A DNA stretch of 60,042 nt. Source: Candidatus Hermodarchaeota archaeon (lineage in GTDB: Archaea; Asgardarchaeota; Lokiarchaeia; Sigyniarchaeales; SOKP01). The position numbers and the translations under genes were made by a program. Shown piece by piece: positions 12,351 to 32,923 of this stretch. The notes below the pieces were generated by a model. It searched no databases and had not been told where the DNA came from. It saw only the letters and a program-made list of their open reading frames with translations. The DNA is taken from contig JBHLLO010000011.1 of assembly GCA_048885535.1 (NCBI GenBank), forward strand, positions 9,483-69,524, read 5' to 3'. The first letter of the stretch is position 1. Every line of letters starts with the position of its first letter.

Positions 12351-13613
12351 ATGAAAATTGATATCGCAATTGGGCTAGATTATTCACATAATAATATGCT
12401 AAGTCTAGAAGCACCTAGTTATGCGGATTTCACCCAATTTCTTTTTAATTCAGGATATAAATTAGGAAAAATTGAAGCTGGTTTCTCTACAGAGAAATTA
12501 GGGAATTATGATGTGGTCATCATGTCAACTCCGAAGAATATTAATCTGAGTCCAAAAGAGCTCGAAAGCTTAAAAGAATATGTAAAGAAGGGTGGATCTT
12601 TGTTAGTAATAGGCGCACGGGGTGGGGATTATTTAAATCGTACCAATTTAAATGAATTAACACGTAATTTTGGCTTTGAGTTTACTCCTGATGAAATTTC
12701 TGACTCTGTAACTTATGTTAATCTACAAAAAAGACCACTATTACAAAATTTTAAACCCCATTTTATAACTGAACAGATAAAAAAAATTGTCCTATCAAAT
12801 CCATGCTCTATTGAAGTTTTAGACTTTTTAGAAGAAAAAGATATTAAAATAGAGGTCCTTGTTAAAGGGGGTTTAAATTGCTGGAGAAAAGTATTTGACG
12901 GAAAAGATTGGGTCGAAGAGGATTGCCCTAAGGTTCCTTTAATGGTAGCTGTAGAATATTTTAAGGGAAAAGTTGTCGCATTTGGCACTCTATCAATTTT
13001 TTCTTCACTAGGGAGAGAATATGGATTTTTTGCTTTTGAAAATGATCTAATTATAGCAAATATATTAAGATGGTTAACAACAAGTGTGGACATGGAAGGA
13101 AAAGCTATAACAATCGATCTTCAATTAGATTTATTTCATTGGGCTAGTTCTGCTATAAGCGATGGCGATTGGGAAAACTTTTCCGATCTAATAAATGGTA
13201 GTCTCCAATATTTTAAAGATAATTATAATAATATTTTGAAAGAGATTGCTAAAGAGAGAAAAGAGAAATTAGAAAAGAAAAAGGAGCATTTAGAAGCTAT
13301 CAAAAAAGCTTTAGAAGATCAAGAAAAACCAGAAGAAGAGTTATTAGAGGCTATCCCTGAGAGAAAGAAAGAAGACTTAGAAGATATCCTGGGAGCAATT
13401 GAAGAATTAACAGGAGAGAAATTAGAACGAACAATTGATTTAGAAAAAGAGGAAAAAATGAAAGAAGGATTGGCTAAATTACCAGACGATTTGAATGATT
13501 GGACAGTGAGGGAATTAAAAAAATTTTGTAAAGAATATGAAATAGAACTACCTTCTAATGCAAGAAAAGCAGATATTATTTCAGTTATTAAATATGTTTT
13601 TGGAATCGATTAA
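12351..13613 (+). CDS. GIFT (GldG/IFT52/DUF4350-like) domain protein with RHH-like segment, coiled coil and C-terminal HeH/SAP-like domain
   Basis: 'GLDYSH', 'LKEYVKKGGSLLVIG', 'TNLNEL', 'GKVVAFG' and 'NILRWL'; C-terminus 'WTVRELKKFCKEYEIELPSNARKADII'. Confidence 0.65.
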   Translation: MKIDIAIGLDYSHNNMLSLEAPSYADFTQFLFNSGYKLGKIEAGFSTEKLGNYDVVIMSTPKNINLSPKELESLKEYVKKGGSLLVIGARGGDYLNRTNLNELTRNFGFEFTPDEISDSVTYVNLQKRPLLQNFKPHFITEQIKKIVLSNPCSIEVLDFLEEKDIKIEVLVKGGLNCWRKVFDGKDWVEEDCPKVPLMVAVEYFKGKVVAFGTLSIFSSLGREYGFFAFENDLIIANILRWLTTSVDMEGKAITIDLQLDLFHWASSAISDGDWENFSDLINGSLQYFKDNYNNILKEIAKERKEKLEKKKEHLEAIKKALEDQEKPEEELLEAIPERKKEDLEDILGAIEELTGEKLERTIDLEKEEKMKEGLAKLPDDLNDWTVRELKKFCKEYEIELPSNARKADIISVIKYVFGID

Positions 13614-20599: not shown

Positions 20600-21622
20600 T
20601 TAATCTGAAAAGATTAATCTTTGTTTAAACAGTGTTTGATTAGAACTAGCATCAATAATATACAAGAAATATTCATGACTAGTAGAATAAATCGGTGAAA
20701 CAATAATTAATTCCTCTTCAGGAACCCACTTTTCAATCTTCTCTCGTAACACTTCACTCTCAAAAAATTCTTGAATAGAAATAACTTTTGCACAGATATT
20801 GTTAAATAAATTTTTTGATTGGTTCTTGATTAAAATTTCTACTTCTTGAGTATCTTTGTCCATATCTGTTCTTAAAATTCTAAAATTTTTTTCAAATCCA
20901 TATAACTCATTTGTTAAAACTTTTGATTCAAATAATTTAACATTCGAAAAACCTAAATCATCTTCTTCACTAAAAATGTAATTTATTGGAACTCCTTTTA
21001 ATGATAAATATGATATGGCCTTCTGAAGTTTGAAAGTTGTAGAATCCGTTCTTTTAATAACAGATTGGAAATATTGTGAACAGGTGTTTTTGATTAGAAC
21101 TTTTATTCGTTTTTTAATAGCTTCTCCTATATTGATTAATGACTTTATTGTTGGAGTTTTTATTGCTTGTGTTTTAGCTACTTCGGCATCTATTAAATGA
21201 GATATCTTTGATGAAAAATGTTTTATTATTCGTTCAGCCATTTTTTTTAGAAGAGTTCCTCCAAAGATATCCATATCGATTGGTAGAGCTAAGATCAACA
21301 CAAGAGTTTCGAAAAGATCTTCTTCAGAACCAGATCGCCGTTTTTCTCTTTTAGATGATATTAAAAACTTCTTTGCGAAATATATTTTTTCTTTATATTC
21401 CAAATCCATTCGATCTGGAGATGTTTGATCACTTATATCAAGGAACCAAATTGAGTGAATTCTAATCAAGCGCATAATATCAAGATTATCTTTTAGAGAT
21501 TCATCAGGAGTGATAAGAAGAGGCACTGGACCAAACTCTTCGTCGAAGTAGAGTAAAAAGATTTCACATAATTGCTCAGGTTCTATAACTTCTTTCTGCT
21601 TTTTTTTTGAAAAGTTATCCAT
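20600..21622 (-). CDS. Hypothetical protein with N-terminal uDENN/longin-like domain
   Basis: 'IFLLYFDEEFGPVPL' start motif; beta-rich C-terminal domain; 30 bp downstream of the hydrogenase large subunit on the same strand. Confidence 0.55.
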   Translation of the reverse strand: MDNFSKKKQKEVIEPEQLCEIFLLYFDEEFGPVPLLITPDESLKDNLDIMRLIRIHSIWFLDISDQTSPDRMDLEYKEKIYFAKKFLISSKREKRRSGSEEDLFETLVLILALPIDMDIFGGTLLKKMAERIIKHFSSKISHLIDAEVAKTQAIKTPTIKSLINIGEAIKKRIKVLIKNTCSQYFQSVIKRTDSTTFKLQKAISYLSLKGVPINYIFSEEDDLGFSNVKLFESKVLTNELYGFEKNFRILRTDMDKDTQEVEILIKNQSKNLFNNICAKVISIQEFFESEVLREKIEKWVPEEELIIVSPIYSTSHEYFLYIIDASSNQTLFKQRLIFSD

Positions 21623-21652
21623 TTGAGTTACACCATTTTTAGTAGATAATTT

Positions 21653-22963
21653 TTAATGTGTAGCACAAGAGATGCATGGATCAAAAGCTCTTATCAGAAT
21701 TTGAACCTTTCTATTAACTGATTCTAGATCTTCTTTTTTATATAACTCTTGAGCATAATTTTTAATTTTTTCATTTAATAGAGGGAAATTTATTTCAGTT
21801 GCGATAAAAAGTTTAACATAATCAATATTATTAGACTTATTCATATGATAATGGTGTATAAGGGTACCACGTGGTGCCTCAACCATCCCAACACCGTTTT
21901 GATGTACAATAGAGTTAAGAGAGGGAAGTGGTTCTTTATTTTCCAAACTATGTTGATTTAATATTTCTAAGCTCGCCTCTATTTCCTTAAAAATTTCAAT
22001 TAATTGTAATACATTCATAAATAATATGCTTTCTCTCCAGTTTTTTTCAAAATTATCTATAATAGAATTTTTTCTATTTCCAAAGTCATTTTCGACTAAA
22101 TGGAATCTAGCAATTGGTCCAGTTAATATATTTTTAAAATCTTTTGATCTAAATTTAATTCCAAAAAGATTACAATCTTTATCAAAATAATTCAAATAAC
22201 CGTTTACTTCAAACTCTAATTTCTTCATATTAAATGGCATTATATTTAGAGTTCCGTTATATCGATCATATTTTCCCTTGTTGGACATTCCAAAATATGA
22301 TGGATTCTGTAAATTAAATTCATTTGGGGGAATTTTAGTAGCAAAGAGTTCTACAAATTTATCAATAATATATTGTATATTAAAAATAGATTTCTGTAAG
22401 TATTTCTGGGCAAGTAAAATATTCTTTTTCGAAGGGTTATAAATGATTCCACCTGGAATAGGTGTAATTAAATGAAGCATTCTTCCTCCAAAAATATTAT
22501 TTAATTCTGAACCTGCTTTAATTAAATCATAAACACTAGTGGTTAATTGAGAATCAAATCTAATTAGTTGGTAAGGATCTATCCCTTTTTTATAAATCTG
22601 AAAAATTTCTAAAAAATCAGGTAATGATTGAAAGAAAAAATGCATTATATGAGATTTAATTAATTCAGCTACCATCAATATTCTTCGAAGTAGGGTTGTT
22701 TGGAAACTAGGCTGGATTTCATAAATCTTTTCAATGGCTTTACAACTAGCAAATGTTTGAGAAGCATGACATAAACCACAAATTCTTGAAACGATTCTAG
22801 GAATATCATTTAACTTTTTGCCTACTAAAATGTTTTCAAATCCTCTAAATGCAGAAATTTCAAATTCTACATGATCTATTTTTTCATTTTGAATGAAATA
22901 ATTTACTTTTCCATGTCCTTCGACTCTCGAACATACATTTATTACCTTTTGCATTACTTTCAC
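21653..22963 (-). CDS. mvhA: [NiFe]-hydrogenase large subunit, group 3 (MvhA-like), with sensor-type features
   Basis: 'SRVEGHG', L1 'RICGLCHASQ', 'VEAPRGTLIHHY' and L2 'DPCISCATH*'. Confidence 0.88.
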   Translation of the reverse strand: MKVMQKVINVCSRVEGHGKVNYFIQNEKIDHVEFEISAFRGFENILVGKKLNDIPRIVSRICGLCHASQTFASCKAIEKIYEIQPSFQTTLLRRILMVAELIKSHIMHFFFQSLPDFLEIFQIYKKGIDPYQLIRFDSQLTTSVYDLIKAGSELNNIFGGRMLHLITPIPGGIIYNPSKKNILLAQKYLQKSIFNIQYIIDKFVELFATKIPPNEFNLQNPSYFGMSNKGKYDRYNGTLNIMPFNMKKLEFEVNGYLNYFDKDCNLFGIKFRSKDFKNILTGPIARFHLVENDFGNRKNSIIDNFEKNWRESILFMNVLQLIEIFKEIEASLEILNQHSLENKEPLPSLNSIVHQNGVGMVEAPRGTLIHHYHMNKSNNIDYVKLFIATEINFPLLNEKIKNYAQELYKKEDLESVNRKVQILIRAFDPCISCATH

Positions 22964-23712
22964 CTTTTTAATATTGGTTTTGAAAACCTATAAAAGATAC
23001 CAGAATATCTCTTAAGGTTATTAGAAAGATGAACTAAACTTAAGAAATTAACAAGGTTTGAAGTAAATTGCTTTGAGGGAGAACCTAAACAACCCTCACA
23101 TGGCATTCCTAATTCTATACATTTATTATCGCACCCTTCTCTAGTAATTGGCCCTAAACATAAAATTTCATTATTTAAAAAACATTCCCGCTTATTTGAA
23201 GTAATTTCAGAATTAGTAGGACTAAGTTTTGATATTTGAGAATTAAAATTAAAATGCTTCTCGTCTCTCAGTGGACAAGAACTACACATATTTTTTTCTG
23301 AGAGCGTTATATTCTTATTTTCAATAAGCCTCATTAAAGAATTTCCTAATAAGTTTGTTGGAGGAGGACATCCAGGGATAATATTATTAATCTCGATGTA
23401 TTTTGAAATTGGATTCGAATTTTTCCTTTTTGATAAACCCAGAATACCCCCAAATGCAGCACAAGTACCTAAAGCATATACTTTTCTTGAATGCTTTCGA
23501 ATTTCCTTCAATACTTCTATTTGATTTACTTCTGAAATGCATCCCTCTATTAATGCAATATCTGAATCTGAAATTTCATTTTCACTTGAGATAAACGGAA
23601 AAAATGTAATTTCAGTCCTTTCTAAAAATTGAGGAAACATATCTAAAGACATAATAGAAGAAATACAACCACTACATGAAGTTAATGATGCTACAATAAA
23701 TCTAAGTTTGAT
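22960..23712 (-). CDS. mvhG: [NiFe]-hydrogenase small subunit (MvhG-like); probable ATC start
   Basis: The frame extends upstream of the ORF-track Met (23652) to include 'SLTSCSGC'; then 'IEG', 'GTCAAFGG', 'PGCPP', 'CSSC', 'CLGPIT' and 'PCEGC'. Confidence 0.85.
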   Translation of the reverse strand: MKLRFIVASLTSCSGCISSIMSLDMFPQFLERTEITFFPFISSENEISDSDIALIEGCISEVNQIEVLKEIRKHSRKVYALGTCAAFGGILGLSKRKNSNPISKYIEINNIIPGCPPPTNLLGNSLMRLIENKNITLSEKNMCSSCPLRDEKHFNFNSQISKLSPTNSEITSNKRECFLNNEILCLGPITREGCDNKCIELGMPCEGCLGSPSKQFTSNLVNFLSLVHLSNNLKRYSGIFYRFSKPILKR

Positions 23713-26248
23713 TAGTGACCCCCTCCCTTAAAATATTATAAAATTTGTTAGCAATTTCTGCAAACTTAGGACCTTCTACCGCGTTTAAATTTTTAAATAT
23801 AATTCGGTTGCGATATTTTGGGCTTAAGATTTTTTTAAGAATTTGTATTTTTTTTTGTGCTTTTTCAATTCCGTCAATATATCTACAAGCATCTTTTCTA
23901 CATCCTATAACCATTACACCATCAAATCCTACCTCAAAAGATTTAAATATAAATTCAGTATCTAATCTTCCTGTGCATGGGATGCGAATAACAAAAATAT
24001 TAGGCTGATATAGCTCCTTCTTTAGCCCAGCGTCATCAACAGCTGCATATCCACAAGAATAACAACAGAAAGCAACAATTTTAGGATTTTTATTAAATTT
24101 TGAATAAATTTCAATTGTTTTCAATATTTTTTCTGATGTATCTATATTCATTTCAATTGCGTTTGTAGAACATACACTTGCACATGTTCCACATCCTTTA
24201 CATTTAAACTTATCTACGCTAATCTTATTAGATTCTATAGTTATCGCATTATAAGGACACACTCTTTCACATAAGCCACATAATCCGCATTTTTCTTCAT
24301 TAATTCCAATACTTGTGAATTCAGTTAATAAATAATCATTTGATAATAGAGAGATGATTTTTAATGCTACTACGTTTGTCGTAGACATAGTAGATTGATA
24401 ATTTAGCGGTCCAAATATTGTTCCAATGCCATAAATCCCAGATGCTAAAGTCTCTTCACTCATAAATCCATTATCATTTAAAGTAAAATCCATGAATTTT
24501 CTTAATATTTTAAGATCTTTATTTGGAATATACTTAAGATTTAAAACTATCAAATCACTTGGAAATTCAATGTTATCTGCGATCACATAATTAACGTTAT
24601 CATTAGATTGAATTGTAATCTTATTAGCATATAGAAATCTTGGATTGGTAGATCTTAGAAGAATTTCATCCTTATTTTTTAATTTACTCAAATCATAAAA
24701 AACATTGACTTCACACTCAGGGCTTCTTATTTTAATATCCTCAATATATTTTTGTGCTAAGATTTCAGAGTATTCAGTAAGATATTTGGAAGGACCAACT
24801 TCTTGAATTATTGAAATAGAGTTTATAGGTATTTTATCGGATAATCTTAATAATTTTCCTTCAGTGATACCATCAGAAGATAATATTCTTTCGAATTCAG
24901 CCGAAGTAATAATACTTTTTTGAGGATTATAAAGATATTTTTCTAAATTCGTATATAAATCCGCACCAATCGCAATGACTTTAACTCCAACCTTAATACG
25001 AATCTTTTCAAGTTTTTGATGTAAGTCAATTGCTTTATTAATACAAACACGCTCACATATCATACAGTTTAAGCAATTATTAATATCCTCTTCATCAATT
25101 ATAGGAGCATATGGATAAGAATTTTGGAAGGGAATGTATATTATTTTTCGGTTTGATAAACCAAATTCATATTGATTTTTCTTTTCCTTACCGCATACAC
25201 TAATGCATTGTTTACAACCTGTGCACTTTTTTTCATCTACATAACGAGGTTTCTTGATTAAATCTAATGTAAAATTACCTACTTCTCCAGAAACCATTTC
25301 TATTTCAGTATTGGTCAAAATATCAATATTTTTCTCTTTAGCAATCTCACCAATTAATTCAGAAATAAAACATATAGAGCAGTCCCCCATATTAGAAATT
25401 CGATGCCATCTAGCTACTTTTCCTCCTAATGTTGGTGATTTCTCTATAAGATATACTTTTATTCCTGCACGTGAGAGATTTAGAGCTAACGTCATCCCTG
25501 CAATGCCACCTCCTAATATCGCACAGCTTTTTTCAACATCAACAGTTTTTATTTTGACTTCTTTTTGAAGTTTTACACGTTCAACTGCAGCTTCAATTAA
25601 TAAGCTCGCCTTCTTTAATGCTAATAATGGATCAAATTGCTGAGTGTTTGAATGATGAACCCAACAACATTGCTCTCTAATATTGGCTATTTCTATATTA
25701 GCACTATCAATCACAGGTTTAAAGATTCGTTCAAAAATGTGTTGATGTGTTTTGGGGGAACAAGCCGCTATAACCACTTTGTTTAAGAAATTTTCTTTTG
25801 TCCAATTTGTAATTTTATTCAAGTTCTTTTCTTGACATAAATTATCAAAAACTTTTACAGAAACTACATTATCTAATTTTTCAATCTGATTTTCTAATAC
25901 ATTAATATTTATTATGTTGGATATTTCAGTATTACAATTACATAGAATCACTCCAATTCGACTAATTTCACTCCCCTTTTTGTCTAAGTATTCTATTTCT
26001 TCCCCTGCTAAAATACGTCTGCTTACATTCATAATTCTTAAAATTCTTTTGCCATCTTCCGTCAAAAAGTAAGATTTTTTATCTTTATTTATTAAGGATC
26101 CTAATTTCTTTAAATGAAAATTTAATTGCCCGGTTTGGGCGATCCCCATTTTTTCCATTAAATCTGTGTATGAGATGAATCCTTCTTTTTCTAGGAGTAA
26201 TAAGATTTTTCTTCGAAAAGGATGAGATAATATGTTATAGATATCTAT
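23702..26248 (-). CDS. hdrA: Fusion of ArsR-like winged-helix domain, heterodisulfide reductase subunit A-like flavoprotein and MvhD; probable ATA start
   Basis: wHTH 'ILSHPFRRKILLLL...GQLNFHLKKL...YFLTEDG'; HdrA 'CNC', 'AACSP', 'NIREQC', 'GGGIAG', 'DCSIC', four CxxCxxCxxxC motifs, 'EFERIL'; MvhD 'AFCCYSCGY', 'PCTGR', 'GCRKDACRY'. Confidence 0.88.
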   Translation of the reverse strand: MDIYNILSHPFRRKILLLLEKEGFISYTDLMEKMGIAQTGQLNFHLKKLGSLINKDKKSYFLTEDGKRILRIMNVSRRILAGEEIEYLDKKGSEISRIGVILCNCNTEISNIININVLENQIEKLDNVVSVKVFDNLCQEKNLNKITNWTKENFLNKVVIAACSPKTHQHIFERIFKPVIDSANIEIANIREQCCWVHHSNTQQFDPLLALKKASLLIEAAVERVKLQKEVKIKTVDVEKSCAILGGGIAGMTLALNLSRAGIKVYLIEKSPTLGGKVARWHRISNMGDCSICFISELIGEIAKEKNIDILTNTEIEMVSGEVGNFTLDLIKKPRYVDEKKCTGCKQCISVCGKEKKNQYEFGLSNRKIIYIPFQNSYPYAPIIDEEDINNCLNCMICERVCINKAIDLHQKLEKIRIKVGVKVIAIGADLYTNLEKYLYNPQKSIITSAEFERILSSDGITEGKLLRLSDKIPINSISIIQEVGPSKYLTEYSEILAQKYIEDIKIRSPECEVNVFYDLSKLKNKDEILLRSTNPRFLYANKITIQSNDNVNYVIADNIEFPSDLIVLNLKYIPNKDLKILRKFMDFTLNDNGFMSEETLASGIYGIGTIFGPLNYQSTMSTTNVVALKIISLLSNDYLLTEFTSIGINEEKCGLCGLCERVCPYNAITIESNKISVDKFKCKGCGTCASVCSTNAIEMNIDTSEKILKTIEIYSKFNKNPKIVAFCCYSCGYAAVDDAGLKKELYQPNIFVIRIPCTGRLDTEFIFKSFEVGFDGVMVIGCRKDACRYIDGIEKAQKKIQILKKILSPKYRNRIIFKNLNAVEGPKFAEIANKFYNILREGVTNQT

Positions 26249-26454
26249 TTTTAAATCCCCTCTATTGATTATTGTTATTGTTATTTTTGAAATTTGACAA
26301 ATTTATTTCTCTTCATGATAATGAAGTTATTAGATTATTTAAACTTTGCCGGATCCTGATCATTAGGATTTTCTTTTTTATAAATAAGAGTGTCGCTATC
26401 AGTCGGAGAAATGTCGATTTTGCATATAACAAAAAAAGTTTTATTAGATAAATT

Positions 26455-26500
26455 TCTGACTAAAAAAATTATCAAACTATAACAAAATTTTCTTGTCAAA
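26455..26500. promoter_or_regulatory. Putative tandem operator (two ~22-bp TTTGAY-N10-RTCAAA-type sites, 24-bp period) in the divergent promoter
   Basis: TCTGACTAAAAAAATTATCAAA-CT-ATAACAAAATTTTCTTGTCAAA; 35/46 ungapped identities with 31295-31340. Confidence 0.55.
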
Positions 26501-26583
26501 CTCTTTTTATTCTAACAATTTGATTATTATCTTAGATTAATAATAATCTTTTAATAAAGGTTTATGAAGAGGTGTTTTGTAAA

Positions 26584-27201
26584 ATGGAAGTTTTGGAATT
26601 AAAGCCTATAAAAAATAAAAGAATTGTTGCCTATATTACCTCAAAAGAAAATGCTAAGTACTTCCAAAACAAAGACACTGAAAAATTAAGGAAATTTTTG
26701 AAAAAGAACACCGTCGATTTTGTGACGGTAGATTTCCAAGTTAACATGAAGGAATTCAATAAAACATCATTTGCACTAACATTAAATGAACTTAAGATCC
26801 CTTATTGTCAAGTTGATATTCCAGACTACGCAATGGGATATCTTTATCAAGAAATTATCGAAAAACAGCAGTTACAAACAGAATTGTTTGAAGAATATGA
26901 AAATATGAGCGAGAAAGAATCATATAAAGGACTTAGTTTAAAAAATTGGATTGATATGCTAGGTGAGGAAATACAAGAAAAAGAAATATTTCTAAGTTTA
27001 AAACTAAGACCTCAGTGGATTGTTAAAAAAATGTTAGATCTAATATCAGACTACGAAAAAGATGTCATAGTATTTGTTCATTTTGTTCAAGAGGACATAT
27101 GTGAAGATATTTGTCCAGAGATTACAAACAATTTGAGGGAATTAGGCGTAAAAGTTGTCTCTTATAATAAAAAACATACTATCCAAAATATAATATTTTA
27201 A
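26584..27201 (+). CDS. Hypothetical protein, paralogue of 27221-27952 (divergent TraB/ChaN-like fold with helical hairpin)
   Basis: GAGGTG SD before ATG 26584; shares 'EVLELKP', 'IP(Y/F)xxxDIxxxAxxYL' and 'KxRxxW' with the next gene. Confidence 0.65.
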   Translation: MEVLELKPIKNKRIVAYITSKENAKYFQNKDTEKLRKFLKKNTVDFVTVDFQVNMKEFNKTSFALTLNELKIPYCQVDIPDYAMGYLYQEIIEKQQLQTELFEEYENMSEKESYKGLSLKNWIDMLGEEIQEKEIFLSLKLRPQWIVKKMLDLISDYEKDVIVFVHFVQEDICEDICPEITNNLRELGVKVVSYNKKHTIQNIIF

Positions 27202-27220
27202 AAAAAGGAGGAGATAATAA

Positions 27221-27952
27221 TTGCCAGAAGTGTTAGAATTAAAGCCTTTAAAAGAAAAATATTTAAAGTTAATAATGGTTGAAAGTGAATTTCCAATTGA
27301 TTGGTGGTTCGAAGTCCCCGATGAAATTAAAGAGGATCTTGTATGGAACCTCCATTTAATTTCAAAAGAATACCTTCAATTGATTGATTCATTAATTGAA
27401 AAATATAAACCTGATTTTGCGGTAGAAGAAAAGCCAAATTTTTGGAATAATGCAAATCACACAAAGGATCCATTAAAAAACTTATTTGAAAAAAAAAAAA
27501 TTCCATTCAAACGCGCAGATATTTCCGAAAATGCCGAATTGTATCTTTCATCAGCCCTAGATGGACATAGATCAGCAATTAAAAATCTTGAGTCGAGAAT
27601 TAGAGAATTAATCCAAAAACAAGGGAAAATTCCTGAAAATGATGACTTATTTCAAAAGTTAATATTATGGAAAGAGTATTTACAGAAAGATTATGATACT
27701 CAAGAAGATGAAGTAAGGTATAAAGTAAGAGAAGCGTGGATGATGATGAATATTCTTAACCTTGCTAAGGATGTACAAGGGAAGAAATTGAAAGGGATGT
27801 TCATTTGCGATCTTCGCCACTTTAATGGGATTGAAAAACTGTCAGAAGATTTGGGTATAGAAATAGAACAAGTGAAGATAAAAAGAACTATTAAAACTGA
27901 GGACCTCGAAAAGGATCTTGAAAAAGATGTAGAAATTGACATTTCTAAATAA
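27221..27952 (+). CDS. Hypothetical protein, divergent TraB/ChaN-like fold
   Basis: AGGAGGAG SD with TTG start; 'KYKPDFAVEE', 'REAWM' and 'FICDLRHFNGI' resemble TraB-type 'PDxVxVE', 'RdxxM' and 'VGxxHxxGI'. Confidence 0.6.
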   Translation: MPEVLELKPLKEKYLKLIMVESEFPIDWWFEVPDEIKEDLVWNLHLISKEYLQLIDSLIEKYKPDFAVEEKPNFWNNANHTKDPLKNLFEKKKIPFKRADISENAELYLSSALDGHRSAIKNLESRIRELIQKQGKIPENDDLFQKLILWKEYLQKDYDTQEDEVRYKVREAWMMMNILNLAKDVQGKKLKGMFICDLRHFNGIEKLSEDLGIEIEQVKIKRTIKTEDLEKDLEKDVEIDISK

Positions 27953-27971
27953 ATAAAAAGAGTTGATAAAA

Positions 27972-28958
27972 ATGGTTGAAAAAAGTGTAGAAAGTATTTT
28001 AGGAAAAAAATCTATTATCGAATTAACTCCAATTATTATAAAGAAACAAGATACTTCCGATAAAATTTGTTATTTTTTTGATACAGATGATAATGCATCT
28101 CCATTTGATATTAATATGGCTTATGATGCTGGTTTCGATATAGTTATACCTCTAAATAAAATGAAAGCAGAGTATGTTCCCAAATTAGTTCAAGATGCTA
28201 TTTTTTCTAGGAAACCCGGTGCTCCTACAGCCTTTTTTATTGGTGGTTCAGATGTCAAAGAGGGTGAAAAAATTGCTAAAGCTGTGAAAAGTTCATTAGT
28301 ACCACCTTTTGAATGTCCCATCATTATTGACCCTAGAGGATCTCATACTACAGCATCAGCGGTTATAGCCATGACGATGGATATTGCAAATAAAAAGCAT
28401 GGTATTAAAGATTTAAAAAGTAAGAAAGTTGTAATCTTTGGTGCGGGTCCTGTTGGCAGAATTGCTGCAATTATAGCCGCAAAAATAGGCTGCAAGGTCT
28501 ACATCGTTGAGACTTGGGAGAAATCTAATGAGAATTTTGTGAATGCTTTAGTAAAGGAACTTAATGCTGAAGCTGGAACCGAAGGAGAAAAGATTATTGG
28601 ATTATTTGCACCCGAACTTGAACAGAGGTTTGAAATAGCTAAAGATGCGCTTATTATATGGTCCCTTGCTGCAGCAGGAGTTGAAATATTAAGTGTTGAA
28701 TGGATGCAAAAATTGAAGGGTAAAAAAATTGTTGTTGATATTAATCTTGTGCCACCATATGGTATTGAGGGCATTAAACCAAAACATAAAAATGACGAAA
28801 TCTATCCTGGAATATTCTGTATTGGGGCACTCGCATTAGGAGCTTTAAAGGCTAATACTGAAAGTCAGATCTTAAAAGAAGCCTCAAAAACAAAAGGATT
28901 ACAGATATTTGATTATAATTATGCATTTGAAGTTGCGTCTGGATTGCTTAAAAAGTAA
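27972..28958 (+). CDS. mtdB: NAD(P)-dependent methylene-tetrahydromethanopterin dehydrogenase-like protein (MtdA/MtdB family)
   Basis: 'SPFDINMAYDAGFD', 'LVQDAIFSR', 'FIGGSD', 'PPF', 'DPRGSHTTASA', Rossmann 'GAGPVG' and 'DINLVPPYGIEG'. Confidence 0.8.
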   Translation: MVEKSVESILGKKSIIELTPIIIKKQDTSDKICYFFDTDDNASPFDINMAYDAGFDIVIPLNKMKAEYVPKLVQDAIFSRKPGAPTAFFIGGSDVKEGEKIAKAVKSSLVPPFECPIIIDPRGSHTTASAVIAMTMDIANKKHGIKDLKSKKVVIFGAGPVGRIAAIIAAKIGCKVYIVETWEKSNENFVNALVKELNAEAGTEGEKIIGLFAPELEQRFEIAKDALIIWSLAAAGVEILSVEWMQKLKGKKIVVDINLVPPYGIEGIKPKHKNDEIYPGIFCIGALALGALKANTESQILKEASKTKGLQIFDYNYAFEVASGLLKK

Positions 28959-29008
28959 AGGTATAAACATTAATTTTAAAAACATATTTTCTTTATTTTC
29001 AGAAAGGG

Positions 29009-31273
29009 GTGATTAGATTGGAATTATCGTTAAAATTGAGAATTAAAGATGCGTTTAAAGAAGATGCTGGTAGAGGAATTGTTCGAATTGATCCCGATGT
29101 AATAAATGAGCTAGATCTTAAAGTAGGTGATATAATACGGATCAATAATCCAATATTAAACAAAAAAACTGCTGCTTTATTATCAACAGGGAAGGGTGAG
29201 GACAAAGGAAAGGGAATAATTAGAATGGATCCTTCTTTAAGACGAAATCTAAATGCTTCTATAGACGATTTAGTAGATATAAAGAAAATAAAGGCAGATT
29301 TAGCAGAAGTTATAACTTTTGCTGGTTTAGATTCTTCTTTAGTCCCACGAGATCCCCAAGCCTTAGTAAGAAAGTTAGAGAATCGAGTTATTATGAAAGG
29401 TGATAGTTTGAGTTTCTATGCTATGGCTCATAGGATTGATTTGGTTGTTATGGATTATATGCCAAAAACAGAGGCTGTTAGAATTAACCTAAATACGAAG
29501 ATAATTTTTGCAGAAAATACTCAGAGTTCAATTGAAGTTAAAAGAAAAGTGGTAAAGTATGAAGGAATTAGCGATATAGAAGAAAAACTACAGAAAATTC
29601 GTGAAAGAATAACTTATGAGGATATTGGGGGATTAGAAGACACAATCCAGAAAATAAGGGAGATCGTCGAACTTCCAATAAGGCATCCAGAGCTTTTTGA
29701 GAAAATAGGTATTGATCCTCCTAAAGGGGTTTTACTTCATGGTCCTCCTGGTACAGGAAAAACCTTAATTGCAAAAGCTGTTGCTTATGAAACAGATGCT
29801 CATTTTATAAGTATCAGTGGTCCTGAAATAATGAGTAAATTTTTTGGTCAAAGTGAAGAAAATCTAAGAAAAATTTTCGATGAGGGAAAAGAAAATGCTC
29901 CATCTATAATTTTCTTAGATGAATTGGATTCAATTGCTCCAAAAATAGAAGAAGGAAAAAATCAAGTGGAATCAAGAGTCGTTGCTCAATTACTTTCACT
30001 TATGGATGGCTTAAAGGGGAGAGGAGAAATGATAATAATAGGGGCAACGAATAAAGTTAATAATGTTGATAGTGCTTTAAGGAGGCCAGGTAGATTTGAT
30101 CGGGAGATTGAAATTAAAGTTCCAAATACTGATGGACGATATGAAATTTTACTAATTCATACTAGAGGGATACCTTTAGATGAAAGTGTAAATTTAAGAG
30201 AAATCGCTGAAAAAACGCATGGTTTCGTCGGTGCGGATATTAAAGCCCTTTGTAGAGAAGGAGCAATGCTAGCCATTAAAGAAATTATACCTGAAATAGA
30301 TCTAGATAAACCTATCCCTGAGGAGATTTTAAGTAAGTTAAAAATTAAAATGCATCATTTCAATGAAGCTTTGAATAGCATTGAACCTTCTGCATTAAGA
30401 GAAGTCTTGATTACTCAGCCAACGGAAACATGGGATGATATTGGTGGCTTAGAAGATGTAAAACAACAATTAAGAGAAGTGATAGAATGGCCATTAAAGT
30501 ATCCTGGGTTTTATAAATACATGAAGTCAAAACCACCAAATGGAATTTTAATGTTTGGACTCCCTGGGACTGGTAAAACCTTATTGGCTAAGGCTCTTGC
30601 TCATGAGAGCGAAATTAATTTTATCTCAGTAAAAGGTCCTGAATTTTTATCTAAATGGGTGGGCGAAAGTGCTAAAGCTGTTCGTGAAACTTTTCGAAAG
30701 GCAAAATCTGCTGCTCCCTGTATCATTTTTTTTGATGAGATTGATGCTATTGCTTCAAGACGTGCCGAGTCTTCTGGTTCAAGAGTGAATGAACAAGTTG
30801 TTGCTCAAATTCTAACAGAAATGGATGGCCTAGAAGAATTGAAAGATGTGGTCTTGATTGCTGCCACAAATCGTCCTGATTTATTAGATCCCGCTTTATT
30901 AAGATCAGGTAGATTTGGAAGGCATATTGAGATTCCATTACCGAATAAAACGTCACGAATGAAAATATTTGGGATTCATCTCTCTAATCGTCCTATTGAT
31001 AGTAATATTGATATTGAATTATTAGCAGAAATGTTAGAAGGATATACTGGTGCTGATATTAAAGCTGTATGTGAAGAAGCATCAATTTTAGCAATTAGAA
31101 GAGGTGTATTTGATACAGATACGAACGTTACTGATCCTAACTCATATATAAAAGTCAAAATTTCTCAAGAGGATTTTGAAAAAGCGATTGAAAAGATAAA
31201 AAGAGGTGCAGATCAAGCAAAACAGTCTTATAAAGAGACCATTAAAGAATTACCTAATAATATTTACCGCTAA
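29009..31273 (+). CDS. cdc48: CDC48/p97/VAT-family AAA+ ATPase
   Basis: N-domain '[10 protein letters not shown]'; two AAA modules ([16 protein letters not shown]; IFLDE, FFDE; RPGRFD, RSGRF); C-terminal IYR; alternative TTG start at 29018. Confidence 0.93.
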
Positions 31274-31282
31274 TTTTTTTTT
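31274..31282 (+). terminator. Oligo-T archaeal terminator after cdc48
   Basis: Run of 9 T immediately after the stop codon. Confidence 0.45.
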
Positions 31283-31294
31283 ATTAAAAAAAAT

Positions 31295-31340
31295 TTTGAT
31301 AAAAAAATTTATCAAACCTATAAAAAATCTTCTTATCAAA
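31295..31340. promoter_or_regulatory. Putative tandem operator including a palindrome with perfect 9-bp arms
   Basis: TTTGATAAA-AAAA-TTTATCAAA (31295-31316), followed 24 bp later by a second TTATCAAA half-site; matches 26455-26500. Confidence 0.6.
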
Positions 31341-31413
31341 TTTTTTAAATTGAGAGATAATGGTTATTTACTTAGATAGAATAAAATTACTTTCTAAAAA
31401 GGATGTGGTTTTA

Positions 31414-31641
31414 ATGGAAATTGTTGTAAAAAGTTTGGAAAAAGTTGAACAAAAAATCGATAACTCATACAAACAATTTTTAATTGAATTTGCAGCTGGA
31501 TATCTTGAATTAGAATTTATCGAGAAACAAAAACAATTGAATGAATATATGAGAGCTTATGATGAATTAGAAGATAAGGAAGCATTTAATGCTGAATACC
31601 TAGCATCGCTAATTGAAGCTCTCAAATTAGAGCTTCAGTAA
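31414..31641 (+). CDS. Small helical protein homologous to the central hairpin of 26584-27201
   Basis: 'FAAGYLELEFIEKQKQLNEYMRAYDELEDKEA' aligns with 'YAMGYLYQEIIEKQQLQTELFEEYENMSEKES'; ATG 31414 preferred to 31360. Confidence 0.65.
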   Translation: MEIVVKSLEKVEQKIDNSYKQFLIEFAAGYLELEFIEKQKQLNEYMRAYDELEDKEAFNAEYLASLIEALKLELQ

Positions 31642-31738: not shown

Positions 31739-32923
31739 TTGGTTTCGCGTAGAGTCAAAGATATAGAATATGCAATAAGAGATATTGCGGTTATCGCAAA
31801 TGAAGTAAAAAAATCTGGAAAAGAGGTTATTTCTCTAAATATTGGAGATCCAGCTATTTATGATTTTGAGACTCCTAAGTTTATTTCTAAAGCATTAGCA
31901 AGTGCCAGTCTTAATGGAAAGAATTATTATGCTGATTCATTGGGGGTTATTGAGTTAAGAGAAGAGCTCAGTAATTTTATGAGAAATAAGTATAATCTAA
32001 ATGTAAATTCTAATGATATTATAATTACAACAGGTGTAACCGAAGCAATTTATTTCCTTTTGGCGGCACTTGTTGAAAAAAGTGAGGAGTTTCTTATACC
32101 TGGTCCTACTTATCCACTCTATATTAATAATACTCGTTTTTATGATGGAATTCCGGTAGAATATGAATTAGACGAAATTGATGATTGGGATCCTAATATT
32201 GATGATTTAAGAAAAAAGATTACTGAAAAAACTAAAGGAATTTTAATTTGTTCCCCAAATAATCCTACAGGTGTTTTATATACTGAAAAAAGAGTTAAGG
32301 AAATCATCGACTTGGCCGGAGAGTTCAATTTACCGATATTATCAGATGAGATTTACGATCAAATTACTTATGAAAGAGATTTTGTATGCCCAGCAAGTCT
32401 TAGTAAGGATGTGCCAATTATTGGAATGAATGGGTTTTCGAAAGCACATCTAATGACTGGCTGGAGGTTAGGTTATTTATATTATCATGATCCAGAACAA
32501 AAATTAATCGAATTAAAAGAAAGTATAGGAAAAATGGCAAGGGCACGCTTATCAGCTAGTACTATAGCACAGTATGCTGCTATAGAAATTTTTAAAACAA
32601 AAAGCAATCATACAAGAGAAATGGTAAAAAAATTAAAAGAAAGACGTGATTATTCATATAAAAGATTAAAACAAATTGAAGGTGTTAGCTGTGTTAATGC
32701 AAGTGGAGCATTTTATTTGTTTCCAAAAATAGATTTTCAGGAATTCTCTAAATGGAAAGACGATAAGGATTTTGCAATTAATTTTCTTAAAGAAAAAGGA
32801 GTATGCACTGTTTATGGTTCTGGATTTGGGGAATATGGAAAAGGTCATATTAGAATCACTTTCTTGCCTAAAAAAGAAATGCTTGAAAAAGTGTTTAACT
32901 ATCTTGAGGATTTCTTAAAATAA
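31739..32923 (+). CDS. Class I/II PLP aminotransferase (alanine aminotransferase AlaA-like)
   Basis: 'IEYAIRD', 'LNIGDP', 'SPNNPTG', 'SDEIYD' and 'GFSKAHLMTGWRLG'. Confidence 0.88.
   Translation: MVSRRVKDIEYAIRDIAVIANEVKKSGKEVISLNIGDPAIYDFETPKFISKALASASLNGKNYYADSLGVIELREELSNFMRNKYNLNVNSNDIIITTGVTEAIYFLLAALVEKSEEFLIPGPTYPLYINNTRFYDGIPVEYELDEIDDWDPNIDDLRKKITEKTKGILICSPNNPTGVLYTEKRVKEIIDLAGEFNLPILSDEIYDQITYERDFVCPASLSKDVPIIGMNGFSKAHLMTGWRLGYLYYHDPEQKLIELKESIGKMARARLSASTIAQYAAIEIFKTKSNHTREMVKKLKERRDYSYKRLKQIEGVSCVNASGAFYLFPKIDFQEFSKWKDDKDFAINFLKEKGVCTVYGSGFGEYGKGHIRITFLPKKEMLEKVFNYLEDFLK

Follow-up and report, generated by a model that had tools for sequence, protein, structure and literature searches.

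Whether a [NiFe] hydrogenase can act on transcription through a flavoprotein of its own complex is the question raised by a locus in the 60,042-nucleotide (nt) stretch of Candidatus Hermodarchaeota archaeon DNA considered here (contig JBHLLO010000011.1; the whole stretch is hereafter called the window). Four genes follow each other on its minus strand and encode an HdrA-type protein with a fused MvhD, a hydrogenase small subunit, a hydrogenase large subunit and a protein of 340 amino acids (aa). Divergently from them, the plus strand carries the genes of P209, P243, an MtdA/MtdB-type homologue and a Cdc48 ATPase, followed by those of P93 and an aminotransferase. The G+C content of the window is about 0.27-0.33 throughout, and its close homologues come from sources named Promethearchaeota (Asgard archaea). 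Hydrogen exchange is central to current ideas on Asgard life and on the origin of the eukaryotic cell, and we know of no account of how these archaea sense H2 or redox state. A previous model-made examination of the letters and reading frames (hereafter the sequence-only reading) had recognized an MvhADG-HdrA-type set at this place, and the Pfam matches agree with it (HdrA-type FAD/4Fe-4S domains and FlpD for the fusion, Oxidored_q6 for the small subunit and NiFeSe_Hases for the large one). The interpretation favoured here, for which we regard the balance as even, is that the locus would be a self-contained redox/H2-responsive transcription factor fed by its own MvhG/MvhA hydrogenase.

The first step of the answer concerns the N-terminus of the fusion gene, which bears the putative DNA-binding domain. 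The frame of this gene is open from stop to stop between positions 23702 and 26302 (866 aa), and its first canonical ATG lies at 26158, with no ATG, GTG or TTG in the stretch added upstream. Read from this ATG, the N-terminal domain is cut in half and matches Pfam DUF7347 at 23.4 bits, below the cut-off of 27.6. When the upstream extension is included, the match rises to 47.1 bits (E 2.8e-12) and covers profile positions 3-76 of 77, with weaker Pfam matches to HTH_20, HTH_24 and HTH_5, which are ArsR-type families. Therefore, the ArsR-like domain that the sequence-only reading had placed at the N-terminus of HdrA is present but complete only with an ATA start, which that reading had missed together with the ATC start of the following gene. 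We propose that translation begins at this ATA (26246-26248, minus strand) and ends at a TAG stop (23702-23704), giving a wHTH-HdrA-MvhD fusion of 848 aa (23702-26248), where wHTH stands for winged helix-turn-helix; the usual length in the family, about 848-849 aa, matches this start. A Shine-Dalgarno-like AGAGGGG precedes the ATA by 8 nt, and an AGAGGGG-like site is found 6-9 nt upstream in all three genomes that have an ATA there. Across 20 loci, the window's own included, the aligned start codon is ATG in 14, TTG in 3 and ATA in 3 (the window's genome, G018 and G010). In G010, a TAA stop lies immediately 5' of the ATA, and the codons between ATA and first ATG differ between the three ATA genomes mostly by synonymous changes (9:4, 12:3 and 14:5). 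The database record of the fusion protein of G018 has 831 aa and begins at an internal TTG.

The gene of the MvhG-like small subunit (22960-23712, minus strand, 250 aa) presents the same difficulty. Its Oxidored_q6 match lies within 22960-23652, and its CxGC ligands (SCSGC), two cluster ligands near the N-terminus, are found in frame upstream of the first ATG. The proposed start is an ATC (23710-23712) preceded at 6 nt by GGAGGGGG; read from this ATC, the small-subunit gene shares 11 nt with the end of the fusion gene. In G010 a stop codon stands directly before the ATC. In 15 aligned loci, the start is ATG (4), GTG (3), TTG (2), ATY (5) or GTH (1). Once the ATC is used, the protein has 12 cysteines, enough for three clusters. 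Since the two starts are ATA and ATC, standard gene calling truncates both genes, so that the DNA-binding domain and two cluster ligands are hidden. Besides the window, L010, L011, L029, L030, L042 and L043 belong to the loci in which these two consecutive genes, each with a good ribosome-binding site, appear to have non-canonical starts.

The sequence-only reading had itself raised the concern that the join of wHTH and HdrA might be an assembly artefact or peculiar to one genome. Neither is the case. The join and the ATA are bridged by contigs from three sequencing runs with 0 differences (two of the three may be the source sample; the runs found were five DNA runs from two studies, with no RNA run listed), and 120 genomes of a 400-genome sample of the phylum carry the fusion. 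These 120 belong to 24 of 85 genera, including several families beyond that of the window; one family is devoid of it (0/14 genomes). A protein search with residues 19-140 (wHTH and beginning of HdrA) against 5.8 billion proteins at E<=0.001 gave 161 matches of 476-1516 aa. Among the matches listed (120), all display DUF7347 and HdrA-type domains, nearly all MvhD and nearly all a length of about 848 aa, under three database names only, 'hydrogenase iron-sulfur subunit', 'FAD-dependent oxidoreductase' or 'heterodisulfide reductase subunit A'. Furthermore, MvhG and MvhA genes lie downstream of the fusion gene in 29 of the 30 loci with room for them (32 were fetched, two of which run off their contigs). 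Within the genus, 30 of 42 genomes carry both the fusion and a large subunit of the window's type, with a glutamine at a position discussed below, and the same 12 lack both, four of these being 98-100% complete. Globally, these data support the view that the wHTH-HdrA-MvhD fusion is real and ancient and carries its own MvhG/MvhA.

The winged helix itself corresponds to residues 1-74 (26027-26248, minus strand). The AlphaFold2 (AF2) model predicts it as a confident separate domain with a pLDDT (its predicted score in the local distance difference test) of 78-87 and the topology H-H-E-H-H-E-E-H, with predicted helices at residues 3-8, 10-22, 27-34, 39-52 and 64-80 and strands at 24-26, 53-56 and 59-62. 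Its most conserved stretch is the predicted recognition helix (TGQLNFHLKKL), of which seven consecutive residues, T39-G40-Q41-L42-N43-F44-H45, are invariant in an alignment of 52 family members; such an invariant recognition helix fits a conserved DNA target. A probably flexible linker (residues ~75-96, 25961-26026, minus strand), in which the AF2 pLDDT falls below 50 for residues 75-94 (~20 residues), separates it from the N-terminal domain of HdrA, where the HdrA2 profile begins (residue 115 of the 866-aa frame, i.e. residue 97 of the protein).

Which redox functions does this protein retain? The HdrA core (24080-25960, minus strand) includes an N-terminal FeS domain, a thioredoxin-reductase fold binding flavin adenine dinucleotide (FAD), and an inserted and a C-terminal ferredoxin domain; the C-terminal fusion (23705-24079, minus strand) is an MvhD [2Fe-2S] domain (FlpD, E 2.9e-33). 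Residues 109-731 of the 866-aa frame match the solved HdrA 8rvu_a at 338 bits, and the C-terminus matches solved MvhD chains with E values of ~1e-21 to 1e-22. In the 52-member alignment, the FAD motif GGGxxG (G246-G251) is invariant, as are the cysteines of the N-terminal cluster and of the partner contact (C103, C105, C138, C163 and D289-C290-S291-C293), those of both ferredoxin domains (C342-C352, C392-C402, C654-C664 and C683-C693, with C686 in at least 90% of members) and those of MvhD (729, 732, 758, 783 and 788). These residues show that the path predicted for electrons leaving the Ni-Fe site, which leads to the flavin and the ferredoxin domains, is retained.

One site is missing. In the thioredoxin-reductase domain, the four cysteines of the CxGSR...CxxCC motif are all replaced, the window reading IQEVGPS..KYLTEYSEILAQKY. 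Being the cysteine motif of that domain, this motif presumably ligates HA4, the cluster that constitutes the flavin's route to HdrB via HdrC in the passages of PMC13580544 and PMC9012536 that deal with it. It is found in none of 121 family proteins and none of 16 further loci; six of nine HdrA paralogue segments of the same genome have it, including another HdrA-MvhD fusion devoid of wHTH. As stated in the sequence-only reading, there is no HdrB or HdrC nearby: no CCG (HdrB) domain was found on the window's contig or among the neighbouring genes, and 27 CCG-domain matches lie elsewhere in the genome. Taken together, the loss of HA4 and the lack of CCG domains on the contig suggest that the fusion family has given up the heterodisulfide branch, and since all members checked lack the HA4 motif, the fusion is not a canonical heterodisulfide reductase.

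These data bear on the most conventional explanation, namely that the locus encodes an ordinary MvhADG-HdrABC with HdrB and HdrC encoded elsewhere. The genome does offer a candidate location, contig C57 (L045:1125-10352), which carries a second hydrogenase that the sequence-only reading had missed: HypF, HypD and HypE and, divergently, the genes of a small subunit (406 aa) and a large subunit (434 aa), followed by those of HdrC and HdrB; neither HdrA nor MvhD is encoded beside this cluster. The 27 CCG-domain matches and the database names 'heterodisulfide reductase subunit A' and 'hydrogenase iron-sulfur subunit' would also agree with this explanation. The sequence-only reading had allowed for HdrBC encoded elsewhere; the HdrCB pair of C57 is indeed there, but the fusion is devoid of the HA4 route that would lead to it, and a pairing of this HdrCB with the window's HdrA was rejected on account of the missing HA4 ligands, which same-genome paralogues possess. 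Moreover, the genome holds several further HdrA and MvhD copies that can serve C57, the best NCBIfam model of the fusion, HdrA2, is matched at 558.7 bits without reaching its cut-off of 1100, and nine of the 12 genus genomes that lack the module keep the canonical hydrogenase. We consider this explanation highly improbable.

Some features of the other Hdr and hydrogenase genes were observed in passing. The large subunit of C57 ends with ...LPDPWIK, without DPCxxCxxH, and about 200 nt downstream another frame reads ...C-TGA-LSCAAH, which may encode a VhuU-like selenopeptide, as reported for Asgard archaea in a passage of PMC11291895. Several HdrA paralogues on contigs C18, C28 and C50 (L003-L005) have an in-frame TGA inside the match, consistent with a selenocysteine-containing HdrA. 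Five loci have, a few kb upstream of the fusion gene, another HdrA paralogue that is devoid of wHTH and takes the place of the P209-P243-Mtd operon (L058:1415-3334, L060:2492-4468, L048:9445-9999, L049:1-729 and L061:5660-6958); it is on the opposite strand, i.e. divergent, in L058, L060 and L049.

The MvhA-like large subunit (21653-22963, minus strand, 436 aa) carries both Ni-Fe ligand motifs, L1 (RICGLC) and L2 (DPCISCATH); all 15 orthologue loci conserve L2, and the 14 with a readable L1 conserve that motif as well. Two traits of sensor hydrogenases had been noticed in it by the sequence-only reading, and both are real in the window. First, a glutamine replaces histidine four residues after the second L1 cysteine (RICGLCHASQ) in the window and in all 14 orthologue loci with a readable L1; where PMC5665086 describes H2-sensing regulatory hydrogenases, this replacement of a conserved histidine is characteristic of them. 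Second, the histidine of L2 is the last residue of the window's protein, with no C-terminal extension behind it; 11 of 15 orthologue loci share this end, and the lack of an extension is likewise a trait of regulatory hydrogenases in the corresponding passages of PMC8159394. Among 138 representatives (the full-length members of the nearest 150 clusters), 127 have His in the L1+4 column, six have Gln and five have Tyr. A quick maximum-likelihood tree (IQ-TREE) of the first 62 of them groups the six Gln sequences together, within a well-supported clade with His in its basal members; the window's large subunit falls in a separate, well-supported clade and clusters with group-3c-like sequences. Its nearest solved chain is MvhA 5odc_F, at 164.6 bits versus 357 for the canonical paralogue. 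While the canonical large subunit is 82-91% identical to its genus orthologues, that of the window shares 50-56% with most of its orthologues from the same genomes (79% with the two nearest), i.e. it diverges about four times as much.

The sequence-only reading had described a palindromic element common to two promoters. Indeed, the stretches 26440-26477 and 31280-31317 share 31 of 38 positions. No other stretch of the genome (3.09 Mb, both strands, ungapped scan) comes as close to the first, the next best reaching 27 of 38, and the two promoters are mutual best matches; blastn-short gave short A/T-rich matches only. Promoter element A (26440-26512, plus strand), in front of P209, contains a one-mismatch palindrome (26458-26473) and then TTGTCAAA at 26493-26500, whereas in promoter element B (31280-31352, plus strand), after cdc48, the palindrome GATAAAAAAATTTATC is exact (31298-31313) and is followed by TTATCAAA at 31333-31340. 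Both have the same layout, a TTGAYAA-N-TTRTCAA-type palindrome and, about 24 nt on, a TTRTCAAA adjoining a T/A-rich TATA-like run. CTTRTCAAAYTYTT occurs five times in the genome, two of these being promoters A and B. Within the genus, the TTRTCAAAYTC of element A is kept in 11 of 11 loci, that of the window included, and element B is kept after cdc48 in 9 of 11. A third copy, with one mismatch, lies at 26296-26311, 48-63 nt upstream of the ATA start, and is proposed as an autoregulatory site.

The same pattern, GAYAA-N6-TTRTC, recurs in distant relatives. It was found 28 times within 450 nt of the fusion start, in 22 of 31 loci, i.e. 1.88 per kb versus 0.032 per kb elsewhere in the same loci, which span 26-61% G+C; the exact copies close to the fusion start in G018, G010 and G029 read GATAACTATCATTATC. 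As the pattern had been derived from some of the earlier loci, it was tested on 16 loci fetched after it was fixed. These gave 13 sites in 9 loci, versus a mean of 0.07 in shuffled sequences (0/2000 shuffles reach 13), and a site occurs in 5 of 277 control tiles. The other sites in the loci mostly belong to the module as well, and in four loci of two distant families the site is directly upstream of a P243-like gene that follows mvhA. The window's genome has 27 exact sites in 3.09 Mb, of which two lie in its 441 kb of intergenic DNA, one being promoter B; the other, C78:11730, is beside a masked run of N and is not interpretable. An exact site at 12776 is inside an open reading frame and was taken as a chance occurrence. 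These comparisons support the conclusion that the palindrome accompanies the fusion gene and the P243/Mtd genes across families, and the fusion, the loss of HA4, the invariant helix and the palindrome together point to a putative DNA-binding regulator of the divergent operon and of itself.

The genes of this operon are therefore the presumed targets. The sequence-only reading had placed it divergently from the module, and the Pfam matches on the plus strand (Mpt_N, 27963-28958; Cdc48/AAA, 29009-31273) agree. Its first gene encodes P209 (26584-27201, plus strand; ATG at 26584, N-terminus MEVLELKPIK). In all 10 genus loci, as in six outside the genus, this gene is oriented divergently to the fusion gene. 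Its second gene encodes P243 (27221-27952, plus strand). The two proteins are paralogues restricted to Asgard archaea, with an N-terminal motif EVLELKP(I/L)K kept across the phylum; their first 11 residues (EVLELKPIKNK and EVLELKPLKEK, 26587-26619 and 27227-27259) are encoded by DNA that is 85% identical. Neither has a family match in Pfam or NCBIfam, and none of the 147 homologues of P243 has a Pfam family. In the ESM Atlas, P209 is placed with the P243 clusters and both have clusters of their own family. The AF2 model of P243 (pLDDT 79.5) gave no PDB match below E 0.01 with Foldseek; a weak TraB/GumN lead for P209/P243 (ESM Atlas 0.82-0.83) was set aside as unsupported, no PDB fold being found for P243.

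The third gene (27963-28958, plus strand) encodes a homologue of the MtdA/MtdB-type NAD(P)-dependent methylene-tetrahydromethanopterin (methylene-H4MPT) dehydrogenase (Mpt_N, E 1.5e-25), which is the sole Mpt_N match in the genome; residues 32-319 of its 331 match the solved MtdA structures 1lu9, 6tge and 6tlk with E ~5e-29. In six loci, P243 and this enzyme are fused in proteins of 557-568 aa (L036:11397-13100, L042:7215-8885, L043:7259-8932, L046:1837-3516, L047:2352-4031 and L057:6387-8066), which links the P209/P243 family functionally to a one-carbon (C1) enzyme; L057 also has a second P209-P243 pair. The last gene of the divergent operon encodes a Cdc48/p97-type double-AAA ATPase (29009-31273, plus strand; Pfam AAA, CDC48_N and CDC48_2). 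Nine of the 10 genus loci, and L059 besides, have this gene after Mtd, at a distance of about 3.8 kb in the case of L032. Behind promoter B come P93, a small helical protein (31360-31641, plus strand; alternative ATG at 31414) with homologues after cdc48 in 7 of 10 genus loci, and an aminotransferase (31739-32923) that may be co-transcribed with it. On the other side, downstream of mvhA and probably in the same operon, is the gene of the 340-aa protein (20600-21622, minus strand). It has no Pfam or NCBIfam family, its sole family hint being a sub-threshold RHH_9 match at residues 254-300 (E 0.0078), and it is kept at this position within the window's family with 31-78% identity, eight of 10 genus loci and two loci of other genera having a homologue downstream of mvhA.

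Several points weigh against the favoured interpretation and have to be set beside this evidence. Some concern DNA binding. The closest solved relative of the wHTH, the putative ArsR repressor 1y0u_A, is a weak match (E 0.0067). In 9 of 31 loci, no exact site was found within 450 nt upstream of the fusion gene. Of the shared element described by the sequence-only reading, the likeness between the two promoters holds, but in the window the palindrome is exact only at promoter B (31298-31313), the sites at 26296 and 26458 having one mismatch each, and one-mismatch palindromes are not enriched in the window as a whole (15 versus 14.2 expected). Part of the data served to derive the pattern, and genomes that are related do not count as independent. 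These points give some room to a second explanation, in which the wHTH would not bind DNA at all and would be a protein-protein or structural module on a metabolic HdrA, the palindromes being bound by a separate regulator. Many proteins use a winged helix to contact other proteins, Pfam assigns no function to DUF7347, the similarity to solved ArsR repressors is weak, and these genomes have many free-standing wHTH paralogues that could bind the sites. However, the seven invariant residues are precisely in the predicted recognition helix, the palindrome tracks the fusion gene across families of 26-61% G+C in which no other neighbourhood gene is constant, and a dimeric HdrA would fit a two-fold symmetric site. 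We regard this explanation as improbable.

Other points concern the role of the hydrogenase. The two sensor traits seen in the window are derived features of its clade. The absence of an extension is not specific, as 23 of 107 His-type group-3 relatives also end at the L2 histidine. In the distant fusion families (L046-L054 and L061; 10 loci), the partner large subunit keeps the histidine and, where the C-terminus is readable (6 of 10 loci), has an extension of 7-13 aa. Because of this, the sensor-like traits are a later acquisition of the window's clade, and the ancestral module did not include them. Apart from HA4, the FeS and FAD sites are all retained, including the inserted ferredoxin domain, which is the exit to ferredoxin in the solved complexes as these are presented in the relevant passages of PMC13580544 and PMC12350162. 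As every cofactor site other than HA4 is kept, catalysis is possible. Finally, L041 (G045:C1:3687600-3705313), the one exception among the 30 loci with room for the hydrogenase genes, encodes a wHTH-HdrA that is shorter, its open frame of 646 aa having a match confined to residues 20-643, and the 8.5 kb downstream yielded neither MvhG nor MvhA.

A further point concerns the presumed targets. Of the 42 genus genomes, 31 have P243 and Mtd, and 11 of the 12 without the module are devoid of them, so that module and P243-Mtd are both present in 30, both absent in 11 and discordant in one, which has P243-Mtd in fused form only (41/42 concordant). In five distant loci, a P243-like gene follows mvhA in the same orientation, inside the operon. 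Since they are inherited with the module and a P243-like gene can be part of its operon, P243 and Mtd could be subunits and not targets; the co-inheritance fits a dedicated regulator with its target and, equally well, a single metabolic unit. A predicted complex of HdrA (residues 96-735) with P243 scored 0.00 and gave no verdict, speaking neither for nor against binding.

There is a third explanation, in which a catalytic soluble hydrogenase, either H2:ferredoxin or feeding the P209/P243/MtdA-like system, would moonlight in the manner of PutA, the wHTH serving for autogenous regulation only. The invariant cofactor sites, the His-type large subunits of the distant families with their extension, the joint gain and loss of P243/Mtd and the module, the six loci with a P243-Mtd fusion and the five with a P243-like gene after mvhA are all in its favour. 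A flavoenzyme can, moreover, be its own repressor, as PutA is in the account given in PMC5293562, at least in the part that treats it. On the other hand, the large subunit of the window's clade has the glutamine of H2 sensors and diverges about four times as much as its canonical paralogue, the start codons of the module are weak or non-canonical (ATA, ATC or ATT, TTG, GTG), a canonical hydrogenase is present besides, and no acceptor site replacing HdrBC was identified in the fusion. We hold this explanation, the chief rival of the favoured one, to be possible, if rather unlikely.

Under the favoured interpretation, that of a redox/H2-responsive transcription factor with its own hydrogenase, the locus might work as follows. 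An HdrA2-type flavo-iron-sulfur protein without the HA4 exit to HdrBC would be made together with its own [NiFe] hydrogenase. It would dimerise like canonical HdrA, which we infer because the cysteine that completes the partner's N-terminal cluster is kept, and the dimer would place two winged helices on the GAYAA-N6-TTRTC palindrome at its own promoter, at that of the P209-P243-MtdA-like-Cdc48 operon and at the promoter after cdc48. Electrons from H2 would pass from MvhA to MvhG, MvhD, the FeS clusters and FAD, and would be balanced against ferredoxin at the inserted ferredoxin domain; the resulting redox state of flavin and clusters would change DNA binding. Binding would probably repress, since TATA-like runs adjoin the sites. 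The hydrogenase of the window's clade has, in addition, gained sensor-like features. Through such a system, the sole methylene-H4MPT dehydrogenase homologue and the module itself would be expressed in keeping with H2/redox poise. The full version of this scheme, a complete hydrogenase-transcription factor in which H2 is read at the [NiFe] site and electron transfer alone reaches the winged helix, without kinase or second messenger, is put forward tentatively and with more doubt than the general interpretation.

How would such a system relate to those already known? Like MvhADG-HdrABC and the Methanosarcina HdrA2-MvhD, it is built from homologous subunits and keeps the FAD, the N-terminal cluster, the Cys197-equivalent, the ferredoxin domains and the MvhD cysteines. 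Unlike MvhADG-HdrABC, it has an N-terminal wHTH, has lost HA4, has no HdrB or HdrC in the locus, has a strongly diverged large subunit with Gln for His in L1, and is variably present in the genus. With the group 2b regulatory hydrogenases (HoxBC/HupUV) it shares the L1 glutamine and the lack of extension (a likeness set by published description, no HoxC sequence being aligned), a three-cluster small subunit and co-existence with an energy-converting hydrogenase. Group 2b enzymes have a gas channel narrowed by bulky residues, a low turnover and only the Ni-SI and Ni-C states, and they signal through the kinase HoxJ/HupT; the large subunit of the window, in contrast, clusters with group-3c-like sequences and is not of the group 2b lineage, a scan of the 16 neighbouring proteins revealed no histidine kinase domain, and the output would be a wHTH on a flavoprotein of the same complex instead of phosphotransfer.

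Regulators from other families offer parallels on the side of the output. SurR of Thermococcales is an archaeal redox-switched regulator of hydrogenase genes, and the ArsR/SmtB repressors share with the window's domain the wHTH fold, the HLKxL signature of the recognition helix and a palindromic target. Both are free-standing, however, and sense metals or use a disulfide switch, whereas the wHTH of the window is tethered to a 770-aa redox protein wired to a hydrogenase. Trifunctional PutA would be analogous in being a redox flavoprotein with an N-terminal DNA-binding domain, a divergent operon and intergenic operators, as set out in the part of PMC5293562 on this protein. The two are not homologous, PutA combining a ribbon-helix-helix with proline dehydrogenase and the window a wHTH with HdrA, and the signal would be electrons derived from H2 or ferredoxin and not proline. 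In the passages on these enzymes, the Asgard papers PMC11216029 and PMC11291895 treat group 3c hydrogenases and Hdr as canonical. No description of the wHTH-HdrA-MvhD architecture or of DUF7347 was found in the literature searched, a scope that excluded supplementary tables and subscription journals.

The locus therefore provides a concrete, widespread and testable candidate, present in about 30% of the sampled genomes of the phylum, with a defined protein, an operator (GAYAA-N6-TTRTC) and target genes. It also implies that some 'HdrA' and 'group 3c hydrogenase' calls in Asgard reconstructions do not correspond to a canonical bifurcating Mvh-Hdr. If the more doubtful scheme of a complete hydrogenase-transcription factor is true, this would be the first archaeal H2 sensor, built from the machinery of flavin-based bifurcation by loss of the HdrBC branch, and the step under its control would be that of methylene-H4MPT dehydrogenase in the Asgard Wood-Ljungdahl pathway. 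A sensory hydrogenase and an enzyme-fused regulator are kinds already known; what the locus brings is that H2/redox sensing in Asgard archaea becomes directly testable.

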